Shown here in pieces: positions 4,616 to 31,714 of a stretch of DNA of 64,000 nt. The stretch comes from Mosigvirus mar005p1, in the sequence record OZ035759.1, one strand, 5' to 3'. The notes beneath the pieces were generated by a model. That model did no database searches, was not told the origin of the DNA, and worked only from the letters and a program-made list of their open reading frames with translations. Numbering within the stretch: the stretch's first letter is position 1; every line of letters begins with the position of its first letter. The position numbers were made by a program, and so were the translations under genes.

Positions 4616-6429
4616 TGGTGTTTAACCCTATGCATGATTTCTTTATTTTTACCGAGATTAAATCCGCGTTCGTTCGGATTTCCCAAATAACCGCATGTTC
4701 TTCTTATGGTGTTCATCTTTTTAGGATCAGTTTCTCCGCAAACTGAACAAACAAATCCGTTTTCAGTAGGAGTCATTTCATGGGTACTTCCGCATGTAAA
4801 ACATTTATCTACTGGCATATTAACACCAAAATAATCTAAATGTTGTGCAGCATAATCCCATACAGCCTCAAGGCCCTTTAAGTTATTTTTCATATCAGGA
4901 AGTTCAACATAAGAAATGTGACCACCTGTCGCAATGAAATGATATGGCGCTTCACGAGAAATCTTTTCAAACGGAGTAATATTTTCTTCTACTGAAACAT
5001 GGAAACTGTTAGTGTACCAGCCTTTATCGGTAACATCCTTTACATTTCCGTATTTTTCTGTATCGAGTTTACAGAAGCGATAACAAAGGTTTTCAGCAGG
5101 AGTAGAATATAAACTAAAAGCAAATCCGGTTCTTTCAGTCCACTGTTTAAGATGAGCATTCATTTTAGTTAAAATTTCTTGTCCAATATCACGACCGACA
5201 AGAATATTCAATTCGTGAATACCAATGTATCCCAAAGACACTGAACTTCTACCATTTTTAAATAACTCAATTATGTCATCATCAGGTTTAAGACGAACCC
5301 CGAATGCACCTTCTTGGTAAAGAATAGGAGCAACAGTAGCTTTAACTCCTTTTAAGGAACTAATTCTACACATCAAGGCTTCAAAACACAGATCCATTCG
5401 TTCATTAAATAGCTCAACAAATTTCTGTTCATTGAACTGTGTTCCAATATAAGAATCTAATGCGATGCGAGGAAGATTCAGTGTTACAACGCCAAGATTA
5501 TTACGTCCATCAAGAATTTCATTACCAGTCGAATCTTTCCATACGCTCAAGAAACTACGGCAGCCCATTGGAGAAACTGGAACTGAAGAACCGGTAATAG
5601 CTTTATTATTCTTAACCGAAATAATGTCAGGATACATTCTTTTGCTTGCACATTCTAACGCAAGTTGTTTAATATCATAGTTCGGATCGTCTTTATAAAG
5701 ATTAACACCTTCTTCAACGAACATAACAAGCTTAGGGAAAATAGGAGTTATTCCATCACGACCAAGACCTTTAATGCGGTTTTTAAGAATTGCCTTCTGA
5801 ATCATTCGTTCAGTCCAATCGGTTCCCGTACCAAATGTAATTGTTACAAAAGGAGTTTGTCCGTTTGAACTAAAGAGAGTATTTACTTCATATTCATAAG
5901 CTTGGAATGCGTCATAGACATCTTTTTCTGTTTTAGATTGAGCATAATTCAGAATGTCTGGTATTTGCCATTTTTCTGCATCTTCAACATGTTTAGCGTA
6001 TGTGCGTTTAACATAAGGAGAAAGAACTTTATCTACATTAGCAAAAGTCGTTCCGCCGTATTGATGGGAAGCAACCTGTGCAGTAATTTGTGCCATAATT
6101 GCAGTAGCAACACCGATTGATTTAGGAGTTTCAATCTGTGCATTACCAAGCTTAAATCCATTCTCAAGCATCCCCTTTAAATCTACTAAACAGCAATTAG
6201 TAAAAGGAAGAGCAGGGGAATAATCAATATCGTGCACGTGAATAATTCCGCTTTCATGCGCTTTCATAATAAAAGACGGGACCATATTTTTGGCAATGTG
6301 TTTAGACACAATACCAGCCATAAGGTCCCGTTGAGTTGGAAAAACACGAGAATCTTTATTAGCATTCTCGTTTAAAAGGTCTTTATTAGTTTTATGAATT
6401 AATCCTTCAATTTCTTTTTCAATTGTCAT
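4612..6429 (-). CDS. nrdD: anaerobic ribonucleoside-triphosphate reductase
   Basis: 605 aa; glycyl-radical C-terminus (RTCGYLG) and Zn-Cys cluster (CFTCG..CSVCG); uninterrupted ORF. Confidence 0.95.
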   Translation of the reverse strand: MTIEKEIEGLIHKTNKDLLNENANKDSRVFPTQRDLMAGIVSKHIAKNMVPSFIMKAHESGIIHVHDIDYSPALPFTNCCLVDLKGMLENGFKLGNAQIETPKSIGVATAIMAQITAQVASHQYGGTTFANVDKVLSPYVKRTYAKHVEDAEKWQIPDILNYAQSKTEKDVYDAFQAYEYEVNTLFSSNGQTPFVTITFGTGTDWTERMIQKAILKNRIKGLGRDGITPIFPKLVMFVEEGVNLYKDDPNYDIKQLALECASKRMYPDIISVKNNKAITGSSVPVSPMGCRSFLSVWKDSTGNEILDGRNNLGVVTLNLPRIALDSYIGTQFNEQKFVELFNERMDLCFEALMCRISSLKGVKATVAPILYQEGAFGVRLKPDDDIIELFKNGRSSVSLGYIGIHELNILVGRDIGQEILTKMNAHLKQWTERTGFAFSLYSTPAENLCYRFCKLDTEKYGNVKDVTDKGWYTNSFHVSVEENITPFEKISREAPYHFIATGGHISYVELPDMKNNLKGLEAVWDYAAQHLDYFGVNMPVDKCFTCGSTHEMTPTENGFVCSVCGETDPKKMNTIRRTCGYLGNPNERGFNLGKNKEIMHRVKHQ

Positions 6430-7660: not shown

Positions 7661-8017
7661 TTAACCCCGGAGTTTATTGAGCTCTTCATAATCAATCCAG
7701 GATTCTAGCCCTGACGGCAGGTCACATTCAATGTTCCACAGAAGCTCTTCAATGGCTTGCAGGCGATTATATTCTTCAACGGTAATGGTAACCATTGGTG
7801 CAACCGGTTCTGCCTTTTTAACCATCATATCGTTCATCAGGACGTAAAGGTCATCACGAACGACAGTGTCGTTCCAACCCCATGATTTGGCTTCGTAAGC
7901 TAATGATGAAGGGAGCACATTTAAAACTTCAATAATAGTTGGAGCATCAGGACCAAGTTCATTGGCACAAACTTCGTATACATCTTGGAAATCTTTAAGA
8001 TTTAATGAATATGTCAT
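7661..8017 (-). CDS. hypothetical acidic protein (118 aa)
   Basis: ORF with ATG; 4-nt overlap with nrdC. Confidence 0.6.
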   Translation of the reverse strand: MTYSLNLKDFQDVYEVCANELGPDAPTIIEVLNVLPSSLAYEAKSWGWNDTVVRDDLYVLMNDMMVKKAEPVAPMVTITVEEYNRLQAIEELLWNIECDLPSGLESWIDYEELNKLRG

Positions 8018-8277
8018 TTAAAATATTCTCGCAGTTGATCAAATCCACCAATGTGACTTCCATCAGGAGCAAACACTTGAGGCATAGTCAATCCAACTTG
8101 TGATTCACGTCCAAGCTTAACAAGAAGCTCAGTAATTTTCTCATCGTCGAACACACCTTTTTCTGGCATAACATTAATGAATTCGAATGGCTGTTTCTTA
8201 ACAGTCAGCAATCGTTTCGCATTATCACAATAAATGCATTTATGAATAGTAGAGTCATACCCGTACACTTTAAACAT
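8014..8277 (-). CDS. nrdC: thioredoxin/glutaredoxin NrdC
   Basis: 87 aa from ATG at 8275-8277; close match to recalled T4 NrdC (MFKVYGYDS.IHKC.YCDNAKRLL). Confidence 0.85.
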   Translation of the reverse strand: MFKVYGYDSTIHKCIYCDNAKRLLTVKKQPFEFINVMPEKGVFDDEKITELLVKLGRESQVGLTMPQVFAPDGSHIGGFDQLREYFK

Positions 8278-8683
8278 TATTTTTCCTTTCATCGATTAAA
8301 TATGCAACGCCAAATACAATACATGTAATAAAACCTGTGATACAGATAGAAACCAACAACACTGTACCAAAGAACCAAATCAAGTTATCTTTAGTAGTTT
8401 GTTTGATATCCATCTCACGAATTTCTATAGCTATCGTATCACCTTTATTCAGAAGCGTATAAAATGACGGTGATACACGCCTGTCAAAAACTCGTCCTTG
8501 CTCATCTTTATAGACTGCAATAAATTCTAATTTAGAATATTTTCCTGTAGATTGGCCTGAGATTAATTCCACTACCTCCACAGGAATTACTTTAGTTTCC
8601 ATGTAAGTATTCTGGCTGTTCCAAATGAATGGGATGATGGCAAAAACTAAAGCTGCAATAAAACAACGAAGGCTATATCTCAT
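8270..8683 (-). CDS. membrane protein (137 aa), N- and C-terminal TM helices
   Basis: Hydrophobic segments CFIAALVFAIIPFIW and LIWFFGTVLLVSICITGFITCIVFGVAYLI. Confidence 0.6.
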   Translation of the reverse strand: MRYSLRCFIAALVFAIIPFIWNSQNTYMETKVIPVEVVELISGQSTGKYSKLEFIAVYKDEQGRVFDRRVSPSFYTLLNKGDTIAIEIREMDIKQTTKDNLIWFFGTVLLVSICITGFITCIVFGVAYLIDERKNNV

Positions 8684-8988
8684 TATAATGTTCTCTCAAA
8701 TTTGTGGAAGCATTTACGGCATTTCAATTTCAAGTTATCAGTGGTCCAGTTAACCAGTTGGACTTGGATAGTTCCACATTCCGGACATGGATGTTTTGCT
8801 GCCGATTTGGCAGCATTTTCACGTCGTTCAACCATTTTCATAATTTCGTTCCATGCCGGAGGAACGAACTCTTCTTCACTATGAATTTTATCTCGTTGAA
8901 CAAATTCAATCTTTGAACTATCGTCAATAAACTTAACCAAGCGGTGATTAGTGTTCATATCAATATCTTCTAAAAGACGTAGTTTCAT
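8683..8988 (-). CDS. zinc-ribbon protein (101 aa)
   Basis: CPEC..(N17)..CRKC four-cysteine motif. Confidence 0.6.
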   Translation of the reverse strand: MKLRLLEDIDMNTNHRLVKFIDDSSKIEFVQRDKIHSEEEFVPPAWNEIMKMVERRENAAKSAAKHPCPECGTIQVQLVNWTTDNLKLKCRKCFHKFERTL

Positions 8989-9938
8989 TATAACACCTCA
9001 ATGGCATTTCGTAAACCGTCCGCTTTCGCATTCAGAGCTTTTAACGATTTAGTTTGTTCTTTAATCTGGGCTTCGACTTCTTTCAGACGAGATTTGAGGT
9101 ACTCACGTTCTTCGCTCAAGTTGTCAACTTTTTCTACTTTAGGTTCTTTAATAGTCTTAAGTTTATACTCGTTAGGGTTCTTCAACTTAATTCGGGTACG
9201 AGAACTATATAACATTGAACCGTTATCTTCGGATTCGTCGAACGTTTCAACAACATCCATAGTCTCTAACAATGTAATAAGTTTATAAGACAACGAACGA
9301 ATAGTTTTGTTGTGCTTATTAATTTCTTCGGCTTTCATGGTGCCGAGATTACGTGAGTAGTAATAAGGAACCTGGATATCAATTGATAATGATGCGTTAC
9401 CGTTACCAGTTGGTTTGAATACTGCAGTAACCCAATCTTTAACATGAACTTTATTTGTACGATCATCGCCGCCTGTGAATAATTTACGTGAATGTTTAAA
9501 AAGCATATTCACTTGGTTATTGAATTCACAAGCAAATTTATCAGCAAATTTAGTTTCAGGAATGATAGCTAACCAATCAGCCAAATGAGTCTTTTTAACA
9601 TCATTAACAATAGTGAATTCAACCAAATCGGTTTTAGTTGTCACAGATTTAATAAAGCTCGGCTTCATAAAGTTTTTAATGTTATCGCGAGCTACAGTAG
9701 AAGATAATAAACGAGAACGTTTGAACCATTGAAGCAACGTCCCTAACGAATGAGAATACGCATTTTGAGTATCTTTACAGATATGATTTTCTTGGCCTAT
9801 GTATGTACAAAAATCGCGAAGAATACCACTTACTACATCTCGGTGTGGAACATCAAATCCTAGTGCACCAACAGCGCGCTGGGCATGAACGTTAGCGATA
9901 AGACCGGCAAAGTATTCAATGTAATGTGAACGTGTCAT
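8988..9938 (-). CDS. hypothetical protein (316 aa) with C-terminal coiled coil; tandem trio member A
   Basis: ATG with GAGAGGAAAA SD; own early promoter; heptad-rich C-terminus. Confidence 0.65.
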   Translation of the reverse strand: MTRSHYIEYFAGLIANVHAQRAVGALGFDVPHRDVVSGILRDFCTYIGQENHICKDTQNAYSHSLGTLLQWFKRSRLLSSTVARDNIKNFMKPSFIKSVTTKTDLVEFTIVNDVKKTHLADWLAIIPETKFADKFACEFNNQVNMLFKHSRKLFTGGDDRTNKVHVKDWVTAVFKPTGNGNASLSIDIQVPYYYSRNLGTMKAEEINKHNKTIRSLSYKLITLLETMDVVETFDESEDNGSMLYSSRTRIKLKNPNEYKLKTIKEPKVEKVDNLSEEREYLKSRLKEVEAQIKEQTKSLKALNAKADGLRNAIEVL

Positions 9939-9966
9939 AATATTTTCCTCTCGTTAAGATAGATTC

Positions 9967-9996
9967 ATTATACTCCAACCATCCTTGGTTGTAAAC
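9967..9996 (-). promoter_or_regulatory. early promoter (GTTTAC-N18-TATAAT) for tandem-trio gene A
   Basis: Minus strand GTTTACAACCAAGGATGGTTGGAGTATAAT. Confidence 0.55.
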
Positions 9997-10000
9997 TATT

Positions 10001-10960
10001 TTATGATTTTAACGCATTCATTGCGTTAAAAAGTTTAGAATACTGCAACTGGAGATTCGTTACAACACTTTGAGCATCACGAAGCTTAGCTTGTGCTTTG
10101 TCAAGTTCAACGGACAGTTGGTCTACAGTAGCCTTGATTTGATTGTAATGGTAATCTTCGGCCGGAAGAAGGTCATTAGAAACATTTAGTTTTACTGCAG
10201 ACAGTTTGCACACATTTGGCAAACCTTTAAACATTGATTTACCCGAAGTAGAATAAGCACTTAGGACTTCGGCTTGTTCAATTGGGGTCCCAGTAAGCGA
10301 TGCTTCAAACAATGCATTTTCCTTTTTAAGATTTTGATAGTATTCAGAGTCTTTGTGCCACCATGGCGCAGGAACCTTTTTACCAATAGATACACGAGCC
10401 TGGATAGCGATATGGCCCTTATTCTTGATAATGTCAATAATATTAAGCTCACGAGAATAAATCGCTTTAATCTGGTGGATATTATCACCTAAAACTTCCA
10501 ACGCTTGGTGGAATACACGAGCAACGTTATCATTCTTAGGTTTATACGTAAGAGTGAACTCGTTCTCACTGATAACCATGATTTCTAACTTATCGTAAGT
10601 ATATTTCAAATGTTTCATGTTAATTGCTTGAGGACGAATACGAGAAGCAATGGCCATCAGATTGTTAAGGTTATTCCGGAACTGCTTAGCGAAATATTGT
10701 CCTTCACCACCAATACAAAAATTACGAAGTTTCTGTTTGGCTAATAAACGGCTGAACTCACCATTTTTAATGAACTCTTTAACGGGTGTGTTAGTAACGC
10801 ATTCAAATTGAGTAAACTTACGAGAAGTAATCCCATAATATGAACAGACTTCCTCAATCTCTTCAGGAGTCTTTACAGGCATACGGATAGGATTAGGTCC
10901 TGGAGTATATGCGTTCGAGGTAAATTCTTTGATAAGTTCTCTACGTGTAATAAAAGCCAT
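10001..10960 (-). CDS. hypothetical protein (319 aa) with C-terminal coiled coil; tandem trio member B
   Basis: ATG; preceded by near-identical promoter sequence to member A; shares MA(I/V)A(S/A)R(I/L) motif with member C. Confidence 0.65.
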   Translation of the reverse strand: MAFITRRELIKEFTSNAYTPGPNPIRMPVKTPEEIEEVCSYYGITSRKFTQFECVTNTPVKEFIKNGEFSRLLAKQKLRNFCIGGEGQYFAKQFRNNLNNLMAIASRIRPQAINMKHLKYTYDKLEIMVISENEFTLTYKPKNDNVARVFHQALEVLGDNIHQIKAIYSRELNIIDIIKNKGHIAIQARVSIGKKVPAPWWHKDSEYYQNLKKENALFEASLTGTPIEQAEVLSAYSTSGKSMFKGLPNVCKLSAVKLNVSNDLLPAEDYHYNQIKATVDQLSVELDKAQAKLRDAQSVVTNLQLQYSKLFNAMNALKS

Positions 10961-10986
10961 TTTATATTCCTCATGTTGAAAAATTT

Positions 10987-11016
10987 ATTATACTCCAACC
11001 ATCCTTGGTTGTACAT
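10987..11016 (-). promoter_or_regulatory. early promoter (ATGTAC-N18-TATAAT) for tandem-trio gene B
   Basis: About 27 bp identical to the 9967-9996 element. Confidence 0.5.
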
Positions 11017-12011
11017 CATTCCTTAAGAAGTTTTACTACTTGAATAAGATTAGCTCGTTCTGTTTTATTTTTACCGTTTAAGCCTGCTAATCGTGAGATT
11101 TCATCGTCAGTCTGTTGAATAGTTACATTAAGTTCGTTAATCAAAGCTTCAAAGTATTTGATTTGCTCAGCATGTTTTGATTCAAATTTCTGAACCGGAA
11201 TAACGTCTTGGTTTAGTTCGTCAATAAGGTCTTTAAGAGCATCTTCTTGGTTGATATCATATTCAACTTCTTTTATTTCTTCAACGAGCTCGTCTTTATA
11301 TCTAACGTCTTTTAGTCCTGGAGCTGGTCCTGAAATCTCTTCTTTAAGAGTACAAACATACCCAATACGGTATCCAATGCCGTCTCGCTTGATATCAACT
11401 TCGTCGATAAATCCACAATGTTTAAGACCAGAGCCGATTAGGTTAAAATATCCTTGACGTCGTCCTTCAAACGTTACACGAACTACTAAGACAGTTTTGC
11501 CACCGACCTTTTGAAGCTCACATTTATAAAAGTCAGTTGAACCTGAATAACGTGGATGAGTTTTAAAGTTCATCTGACGATCTAGGCCCATTTGTAAACG
11601 TGCTGCTACGGCCATAAAACGTGTTTGGTTCTCGTTAAGATGAGCAACAATCCATTTCAAAGGCATTTTACACTGTTCACGACCGAACAAATCAGTACGT
11701 CCTAGATTACGCAGGATGTTGTTAGAGTTAATCATCGACAGAACGTTAAGTTTATTCAGCGCGCTGAAGATTCCATCAGCCATTGATTTTCCATAACCTT
11801 TACACGCTTTAATAAGTGCTCGCGGCAGATTAGTATAGATTTCAGACGGCATATGAAAATCAAATTTACTAACCAGTAATTGATGAACTTGGATAGCAAT
11901 TTGTTCATAATTAAGTGCTCTGCGATCGTTATGGTCTTTAAACCACACTTTAATCTGTGAAGCACATAAACCGTTAATTTCATGTTTTACCGCATCAGAT
12001 GTAATGCTCAT
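11016..12011 (-). CDS. hypothetical protein (331 aa) with C-terminal coiled coil; tandem trio member C
   Basis: ATG; possible MotA-box middle promoter upstream (CGCTTTA-N12-TATAAT). Confidence 0.65.
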   Translation of the reverse strand: MSITSDAVKHEINGLCASQIKVWFKDHNDRRALNYEQIAIQVHQLLVSKFDFHMPSEIYTNLPRALIKACKGYGKSMADGIFSALNKLNVLSMINSNNILRNLGRTDLFGREQCKMPLKWIVAHLNENQTRFMAVAARLQMGLDRQMNFKTHPRYSGSTDFYKCELQKVGGKTVLVVRVTFEGRRQGYFNLIGSGLKHCGFIDEVDIKRDGIGYRIGYVCTLKEEISGPAPGLKDVRYKDELVEEIKEVEYDINQEDALKDLIDELNQDVIPVQKFESKHAEQIKYFEALINELNVTIQQTDDEISRLAGLNGKNKTERANLIQVVKLLKE

Positions 12012-12073
12012 AACTATTTCCTCAGATTGAATTGGAACTCAAAACCATTATAACCCGTCCTTGGGTAAAGCGT

Positions 12074-12601
12074 TTATGCGTGAACCGTCTTTAAACGTTC
12101 TTCAAATTTCCGAAGAGTACTAATACGTTCTGCTTTCTGTTTTGTATAGTTTGCAATACGTTCTGAAGTGAGAGCGTATCGTTCGTTTACTGTTTCTTTC
12201 ATGAAGTCAGGGATTTCACGAGAAGCTTTAATTTCATCAAACTTATCGAGTACTGCCTGGTCTTCAGCGATTAAATTTTCGTACATCTCGATATCTTTCT
12301 TGATAAACTCGATATCTTCCTGGGTTACTTTGGATAAACGAGATGCTTTATCCTTTTTGTACTGCTCGTTAGTTTCACGAGACCAGAATAATGTACGTTT
12401 TTTGTTAGTGTTTTTGTAGACTTCCACAATTCCAACTGAATCGATGATAACAATCCAATTCCAGCGAGATTTGAAAATCTGACCTCCGTCCACGGTAATC
12501 TCGTTACCATAAGCAACGTCATTAAAGAACTTGCTTTGTGCTTCAGATTTAAATTTACCGTCGTTATAATTTACCAGGTTGAAAATATCTTTAGCGTTCA
12601 T
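12074..12601 (-). CDS. hypothetical protein (175 aa)
   Basis: ORF with ATG; C-terminal helical region. Confidence 0.6.
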   Translation of the reverse strand: MNAKDIFNLVNYNDGKFKSEAQSKFFNDVAYGNEITVDGGQIFKSRWNWIVIIDSVGIVEVYKNTNKKRTLFWSRETNEQYKKDKASRLSKVTQEDIEFIKKDIEMYENLIAEDQAVLDKFDEIKASREIPDFMKETVNERYALTSERIANYTKQKAERISTLRKFEERLKTVHA

Positions 12602-14183: not shown

Positions 14184-14465
14184 TTACTTATCGCACTTAG
14201 CAACATAATTAGGCATATCACAGAATACAGAGCGAGTAACTACTCGGCCCTTTGACCATGCTTCAGTTGCTTGTCCGGCCGTGCTATTAATATAGCTTGA
14301 TTTGATATTCTCAATACCCTGAGAATGTGATGCATTTACCGAACCATTGGAAGGCCCAGAAGACTGGTTACCACCAGCTCCTGCACTACCGCCGCCTGGA
14401 CCTGTGGTAGCACCAACAGAGAATGCCATCATTACTGCGAATAAACCAATTACTAATTTTTTCAT
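14184..14465 (-). CDS. secreted Gly/Ser-rich small protein (93 aa)
   Basis: Signal peptide MKKLVIGLFAVMMAFSVGA, then GPGGGSAGAGGNQSSGPSNGS, two C-terminal Cys; late-type TATAAATA upstream; hairpin downstream. Confidence 0.6.
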   Translation of the reverse strand: MKKLVIGLFAVMMAFSVGATTGPGGGSAGAGGNQSSGPSNGSVNASHSQGIENIKSSYINSTAGQATEAWSKGRVVTRSVFCDMPNYVAKCDK

Positions 14466-31645: not shown

Positions 31646-31714
31646 TTTTGTTTACTCCTCTGTAGTTGATAAGTCTATAGTATCACCGTCCTTGGTGCTT
31701 GTACATCGTTATTT

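Follow-up and report, generated by a model that had tools for sequence, protein, structure and literature searches.

What are the uncharacterised genes that crowd the nrdC block of T-even phages, and what do they do for the phage? We addressed this question in a 64,000-nt stretch of DNA from Mosigvirus mar005p1, an RB69-like T-even phage (record OZ035759.1; this whole stretch is called the window below). An earlier note, made from the sequence alone, had singled out three adjacent minus-strand genes of 316, 319 and 331 amino acids (aa) in the nrdC interval as possible distant paralogs. We recovered the three open reading frames (ORFs) with precisely these lengths, ends and strand, each with a GAGG Shine-Dalgarno sequence in front of it:

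8988..9938, minus strand: 316-aa protein, ortholog of T4 NrdC.3 (ORF; BLASTP; phrog_1435; PF26897 on close homologs)
10001..10960, minus strand: 319-aa protein, diverged NrdC.5-family member (ORF; Pfam DUF7235/PF23882; phrog_2351)
11016..12011, minus strand: 331-aa protein, homolog of T4 NrdC.6 (ORF; BLASTP; phrog_2257; PF26899 on close homologs)

A 4.1-kb query across the trio is 97% identical to Mosigvirus genomes. The genes are already known as hypothetical T-even genes, and one of their families has a published counter-defence role. Because T4 nrdC.5 has been published as a factor that overcomes the defence protein Dsr1, the best reading of the trio, and in our view a probable one, is an early, dispensable array of counter-defence paralogs.

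Correspondence to T4 proteins

BLASTP against the T4 nrdC block matched the 316-aa protein to NrdC.3 (56.6% identity, full length, E 3e-119), the 319-aa protein to NrdC.5 (23.6% identity, full length, E 2e-10) and the 331-aa protein to NrdC.6 (29.6% identity over 270 aa, E 4e-19); in the same comparison the window yielded no ortholog of NrdC.4. The 319-aa protein covers the whole of Pfam DUF7235 (profile positions 1-307/307) with 416.7 bits, T4 NrdC.5 matches the profile end to end with 420.6 bits, and the gathering cut-off is 30 bits. Neither the 316-aa nor the 331-aa protein matches DUF7235 in Pfam; PF26897 and PF26899 are precomputed labels on close homologs of the 316-aa and 331-aa types, respectively. 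The trio falls into three different PHROGs, each of unknown function, and no housekeeping homology was found.

Three entries in public records touch these genes. Many GenBank records name these genes thioredoxin, and those of ATK47 and mobillu do so for every nrdC.x gene; this looks like name propagation from "nrdC.x", as Pfam finds no thioredoxin-fold domain in any of the three proteins. One GenBank record places an 11-nt "StbAB binding site" inside an NrdC.6-type gene, for which the sequence gives no support. The T4 reference NrdC.6 (275 aa; locus coordinates 10067-10894) ends in a frameshifted tail ...ELIFLFNNMMMKFSDYLD, NrdC.6 relatives (295 aa) run on into the conserved C-terminal helix ending LLKS, and another T4 record, OL964745, aligns all the way to the end; the reference tail reflects a sequencing error or else a mutation in that strain.

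Profile comparisons place the trio in one proposed superfamily

Pairwise BLASTP detects no similarity among the three proteins. The short motif on which the earlier note had based its suspicion of paralogy, MA(I/V)A(S/A)R(I/L), occurs in the 319-aa protein as MAIASRI (aa 102-108) and in the 331-aa protein as MAVAARL (aa 133-139). We collected the nrdC regions of 12 IMG/VR contigs anchored on NrdC.8, together with T4 and database homologs, and built from them four family alignments, F3, F4, F5 and F6, for the NrdC.3,.4,.5 and.6 types; FB denotes a bridge family described below. The T4-type NrdC.4,.5 and.6 sequences, which word-indexed protein searches had missed, came from the collected loci.

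In hhalign, F3 and F4 score 97.8% (E 7e-13, 209 columns) and keep 97.7% when the last 65 residues are removed. F4 and F5 align over 224 collinear columns (89%, E 2e-6) and score 63.5% without the C-terminal helix. F6 reaches at most 2.5% against the other types in pairwise comparison and up to 33% against F3 and F4 combined, neither of which is significant.

The link to NrdC.6 comes through the bridge family. The NrdC.5 family is narrow and fast-evolving, and an exhaustive HMMER search with its profile returned only 9 representatives in 1.84 billion proteins, one of them a 315-aa protein of Klebsiella Marfaviruses. This protein and its relatives make up FB, whose members are single-copy and lie directly upstream of nrdC.2 in Kanagawavirus and Pectobacterium phage PM2. 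FB scores 98.0% with F5 (E 2e-13, 244 columns), 95.7% with F6 (E 9e-9) and 80.5% with F4; without the last 65 residues these values become 30%, 91.8% and 85.9%. Bridge sequences match two family hidden Markov models (HMMs) each. The adjacent NrdC.8 family was taken along as a negative control; none of its scores with the other families is above 1.2%, and it was rejected as a further member.

MAFFT alignments of all families are collinear and have in common the motifs SRLLS...L.NF, N....LL..A.RL..G..R, which includes MAIASRI/MAVAARL, and, at the C-terminus, ...KL..A...LK. The profile-profile comparisons, the bridge family and the Foldseek match described below, taken together, argue that NrdC.3,.4,.5 and.6 form one superfamily whose relatedness extends beyond the C-terminal helix; the gain in model confidence with the superfamily alignment (see below) also counts for it. 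The distant paralogy that the earlier note had proposed is thus upheld by hhalign via NrdC.4 and the bridge family and by Foldseek, with BLASTP silent, and these same links support a distant similarity among the three. The superfamily link is new, without record in Pfam, PHROGs or the searched literature.

Another conserved protein, of 256-257 aa, is encoded in Marfavirus (locus coordinates 5269-6042) and Kanagawavirus (locus coordinates 5238-6008). Its gene precedes that of the single-copy family member by two to three genes, and it matches none of the four family HMMs.

Predicted architecture

We modelled the 319-aa protein, the only one of the three for which an AlphaFold2 (AF2) model was made. 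AF2 with a multiple sequence alignment (MSA) of the NrdC.5 family alone gave a pLDDT (predicted local distance difference test) of 46 and a model with which Foldseek was uninformative; the superfamily MSA raised the pLDDT to 66.7. Together with a heptad analysis, this model delimits four segments:

10295..10873, minus strand: predicted N-terminal globular region of the 319-aa protein, aa 30-222 (AF2, superfamily MSA)
10163..10294, minus strand: predicted disordered linker of the 319-aa protein, aa 223-266 (AF2 pLDDT <50)
10007..10162, minus strand: C-terminal amphipathic helix of the 319-aa protein, 52 residues, aa 267-318 (AF2 pLDDT 77-92; heptad score; conserved columns)
8991..9104, minus strand: C-terminal heptad-periodic helix of the 316-aa protein, aa 279-316 (heptad score above the 95% level of shuffled sequences)

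The N-terminal region of the model comprises a helical subdomain and a beta-beta-alpha-beta-beta-alpha sandwich, with a pLDDT of about 65-87 for roughly aa 30-192. The pLDDT falls below 50 from aa 195, helix 206-222 is of low confidence, and the low-confidence stretch around the linker spans about aa 195-266; the linker is the most indel-rich part of the alignment. The C-terminal helix ends in the family motif Q.xKLxxAxxALK. The model thus indicates a variable helical and alpha/beta N-terminal domain, a disordered linker and a conserved C-terminal amphipathic helix, and the alignment and the heptad score suggest a similar layout for the 316-aa and 331-aa proteins.

In a Foldseek search of BFVD the top match of the model is RB69 NrdC.5. 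NrdC.6 of phage JS10 follows (E 7e-6, probability 1.0, 249 columns, TM-score only 0.33), an independent model whose match supports the superfamily and does not prove it. Further matches are uncharacterised proteins of about 310-375 aa from T4-like phages of Pectobacterium, Acinetobacter, Klebsiella, Serratia and Erwinia, with TM-scores of about 0.33; no NrdC.3 or NrdC.4 model was clearly identified among the matches.

The earlier note had described all three proteins as a globular N-terminus followed by a heptad-rich coiled coil. We scored hydrophobic heptad periodicity over at least 28 residues against a shuffled control, and the score rises above the control in the 316-aa protein at aa 279-316 and in the 319-aa protein at aa 267-319, but nowhere in the 331-aa protein. 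By this heuristic the description would apply to a short C-terminal stretch in two of the three. PADLOC returned weak coiled-coil noise only, and sequence-profile searches of the PDB returned coiled-coil chance matches only. The proteins appear to be mostly globular with a C-terminal helix, rather than coiled-coil proteins.

Promoters and the 27-nt repeat

Promoter-like sequences precede all three genes, and those of the 316-aa and 319-aa genes consist mostly of an exact 27-nt repeat, TACAACCAAGGATGGTTGGAGTATAAT, at 9967-9993 and 10987-11013 on the minus strand. It occurs exactly twice in the 64 kb, with 0 matches expected in shuffled sequence, which confirms the identity over about 27 bp noticed before. 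The elements are as follows:

9967..9995, minus strand: sigma-70-type early promoter of the 316-aa gene, TTTACA-N17-TATAAT (holds repeat copy 1, 9967-9993)
10987..11015, minus strand: sigma-70-type early promoter of the 319-aa gene, TGTACA-N17-TATAAT (holds repeat copy 2, 10987-11013)
12047..12071, minus strand: candidate MotA-dependent middle promoter of the 331-aa gene, GCTTTA-N13-TATAAT (sequence; T4 MotA-box consensus)
9979-9988, 10999-11008, 12055-12064 and 31686-31695: palindrome NNCCAAGGA(T/C)GGNN

The claim that each gene has its own early promoter stands for the 316-aa and 319-aa genes and is not borne out for the 331-aa gene. Upstream of the latter no -35/-10 promoter with 16-18 nt spacing is found; judged by the known T4 MotA-box consensus, its promoter looks like a MotA-dependent middle promoter, and the same GCTTTA-N13-TATAAT layout lies upstream of T4 nrdC.7. 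These are the two points, the early class of the third promoter and the coiled coil as written, on which the earlier note needs correcting; its ORFs, repeat and motif stand, and its paralogy and suggested role are supported.

The palindrome sits in the promoter spacer just upstream of the -10 box, in several early and middle promoters of this phage and of T4, including those of T4 nrdC.3, nrdC.4 and nrdC.7. It could affect promoter strength, act as a DNA-level recombination site or reflect a shared origin of the promoter cassettes. Folded as RNA it gives a weak hairpin (-6.9 kcal/mol) that does not outperform shuffled sequence; with z-scores of -1.1 to -1.6, which are not significant, we dismissed a role as terminator or as stable RNA hairpin. 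No terminator-like site was found on the minus strand in 8988-12073.

Presence and absence of the NrdC.5-type gene at the promoter repeat

The identical promoters are direct repeats that flank the 319-aa gene. We therefore built the product that recombination between them would leave and searched for it. The synthetic deletion junction occurs intact, in one piece and at 95-98% identity, in 20-21 Mosigvirus records, and defines the following element:

9994..11013, minus strand: presence/absence cassette of 1020 bp, the 319-aa gene plus one promoter repeat (deletion-junction search)

Phage p000v has its NrdC.3-type gene right beside its NrdC.6-type gene, and at their junction stands a single promoter copy, flanked upstream by the sequence that borders one repeat and downstream by the sequence that borders the other. 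Record counts agree, with about 154 for the 331-aa type versus 132 for the 319-aa type. The breakpoint lies exactly in the promoter repeat, and the NrdC.5-type gene is present or absent by recombination within the 27-nt duplicate. This promoter-bounded presence/absence is new, and its direction may be either loss or gain.

Across relatives, synteny shows a copy number of 1-4 at this locus:

T4-type phages: family members.6-.5-.4-.3
Window: family members.6-.5-.3
Third clade of contigs: family members.6-.5-.4
Marfavirus, Kanagawavirus and PM2: one copy

Contigs as long as 167 kb carry a natural in-frame fusion that lacks NrdC.4 and joins aa 146-272 of NrdC.5 (94% identical to T4) directly to aa 129-309 of NrdC.3. 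Evidently the paralog array also rearranges by recombination inside genes.

Counter-defence as the probable function

The evidence on function comes from T4. A T4 clone with deletions including nrdC.5 no longer infects ECOR17, deletion of dsr1 in ECOR17 restores infection by the evolved clone, plasmid-borne dsr1 protects MG1655 from it, and T4 NrdC.5 restores infection of a host with Dsr1, a SIR2 NADase (Srikant, Guegler, Laub 2022; PMC9391042). The TPR sensor of Dsr1 reportedly recognises the major capsid proteins of phages (PMC12803255). The 319-aa protein belongs to the same Pfam family as this published Dsr1-overcoming factor, and its gene has a predicted sigma-70-type early promoter and is naturally absent from the 20-21 Mosigvirus genomes above, consistent with early expression and with dispensability on laboratory hosts. 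The host-takeover or counter-defence role raised in the earlier note is supported to this extent.

Our model has the following steps. The trio would be tandem paralogs of a Tevenvirinae-specific NrdC.3/.4/.5/.6 superfamily, single-copy next to nrdC.2 in Marfavirus, Kanagawavirus and Mosugukvirus and apparently expanded in tandem to 2-4 copies in T-even phages. The genes would be dispensable and active ahead of the late phase, with sigma-70 early promoters driving two of them and a probable MotA middle promoter driving the third, and their most likely job would be to neutralise host anti-phage proteins. The 319-aa protein may do the same as T4 NrdC.5 or something similar, and the other two paralogs may target other defence proteins. 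The N-terminal domain may bind the defence protein directly, by analogy with DSAD1 and DSR2, and the C-terminal helix may oligomerise the inhibitor.

A bolder version is tentative and, on present evidence, rather doubtful: NrdC.3/.4/.5/.6 would be a modular array in which each diversified N-terminal domain blocks a different immune sensor, Dsr1-type TPR-SIR2 proteins being only the first known target, the conserved C-terminal helix provides a common oligomerisation or docking element, and recombination at the promoter repeats allows paralogs to be swapped, lost or gained as cassettes and so tunes host range.

Several observations weigh against counter-defence by a single superfamily. Direct F5-F6 and F3-F6 profile comparisons are not significant, what connects NrdC.5 to NrdC.6 is the bridge family together with a moderately confident model whose TM-scores are low (0.33), the bridge HMM E-values were computed on a tiny target set, and heptad periodicity was scored by a home-made heuristic. 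With no more than 24% identity to T4 NrdC.5, the 319-aa protein may differ from it in target specificity. The literature searches on nrdC.3, nrdC.4, nrdC.6 and the DUF names returned no functional data, and the searched literature gave no mechanism for T4 NrdC.5.

Three other explanations were weighed. The genes could be neutral hitch-hikers of PeSL-type promoter-cassette shuffling that bring no benefit in current hosts, which fits the loss or gain of the 319-aa gene exactly at a promoter repeat and the published tie between promoter cassettes and the turnover of unknown-function ORFs in T4-like phages (PMC4122927). Shuffling, however, accounts for the movement of genes and not for the persistence of intact reading frames, and full-length ORFs are conserved in hundreds of genomes (653 phage records for the 316-aa, 133 for the 319-aa and 741 for the 331-aa protein); the measured benefit of T4 nrdC.5 on a Dsr1 host also argues against neutrality. 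We regard this account as unlikely.

More improbable still is that the proteins are host-takeover factors acting on a conserved host machine such as RNA polymerase, the alpha/beta sandwich mimicking the Rpb11-like dimerisation domain at the N-terminus of the polymerase alpha subunit. One would not expect the copy number of a factor for a conserved machine to range from 1 to 4, nor such a factor to be missing in about 20 close relatives, and the T4 NrdC.5 phenotype is defence-specific.

Least credible is the view that the three are unrelated ORFans, alike only through a low-complexity C-terminal coiled coil and paralogous by compositional artefact: BLASTP and the F5-F6 and F3-F6 comparisons would allow it and coiled coils do attract spurious matches, but the F3-F4, FB-F6 and FB-F4 scores survive removal of the last 65 residues (97.7%, 91.8% and 85.9%), the Foldseek alignment to NrdC.6 spans 249 columns, the adjacent NrdC.8, whose C-terminus is helical too, stays at or below 1.2%, and the genes have in common a syntenic position next to nrdC.2.

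To our knowledge, one anti-Dsr1 protein is known, its mechanism and relatives undescribed. Uniting NrdC.3,.4,.5 and.6 in one superfamily makes testable candidates for counter-defence of four unrelated-looking hypothetical proteins, encoded in hundreds of T-even phage genomes with therapeutic candidates among them. Mosigviruses that carry the 319-aa gene (for example mobillu and phiE142) and those that lack it (for example p000v, G2285 and F2) are natural isogenic-like pairs, and the breakpoint in the 27-nt repeat is a clean natural case of promoter-cassette-mediated turnover of an accessory gene.

Genomic surroundings

The trio lies within the nrdC-to-nrdC.11 block, in line with the location given in the earlier note. 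Its neighbours are:

8014-8292: nrdC
8270-8683: NrdC.7-like membrane protein
8683-8988: NrdC.2
12074-12601: NrdC.8

An NrdC.9-like ORF, NrdC.10 and NrdC.11 are further neighbours. The NrdC.7-like protein is 41% identical to T4 NrdC.7 and adjoins nrdC, in the slot of T4 nrdC.1; in T4, nrdC.7 lies between nrdC.8 and nrdC.6, which indicates gene relocation inside the hyperplastic block. A 93-aa ORF on the minus strand at 14184-14465, between NrdC.10 and NrdC.11, has a signal-peptide-like N-terminus and a Gly/Ser/Asn-rich region.

Comparison with known systems

DSAD1, the anti-DSR2 protein of SPbeta-like phages, binds the sensor site of DSR2 in competition with the structural-protein trigger (PMC11087589). 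In line with the activity proposed here, it is a small phage protein that binds the sensor domain of a SIR2 NADase; unlike the trio, it belongs to another phage group and has another size and architecture, and no sequence relation between the two was found, the profile searches of the PDB giving coiled-coil chance matches only.

The cassette differs from published PeSL cassettes (Arbiol 2010; Comeau 2014) in that their stem-loop precedes the -35 box and acts as a transcription terminator, whereas here the palindrome is inside the -35/-10 spacer and has no T-run, and no terminator stem-loop was found just upstream of the promoter. The likeness is in early promoters that recur on either side of a variable ORF within a hyperplastic region and in an indel breakpoint inside the repeat, and the outcome seen here is that of excision or integration in the PeSL mini-circle model (PMC4122927).

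T4 NrdC.3,.4 and.6, all hypothetical proteins, share with the trio collinear motifs and, as the alignments suggest, architecture, the 316-aa protein being orthologous to NrdC.3 and the 331-aa protein homologous to NrdC.6; they differ in that the window has no NrdC.4 and that databases keep them as separate families of unknown function. From T4 NrdC.5 the 319-aa protein departs in its N-terminal 60 residues and linker, at 24% identity overall, and in being optional among Mosigviruses. The two nevertheless belong to the same Pfam family and length class, have an early promoter and the same C-terminal helix motif, and occupy the same slot between the NrdC.6-type and the NrdC.4/.3-type genes.

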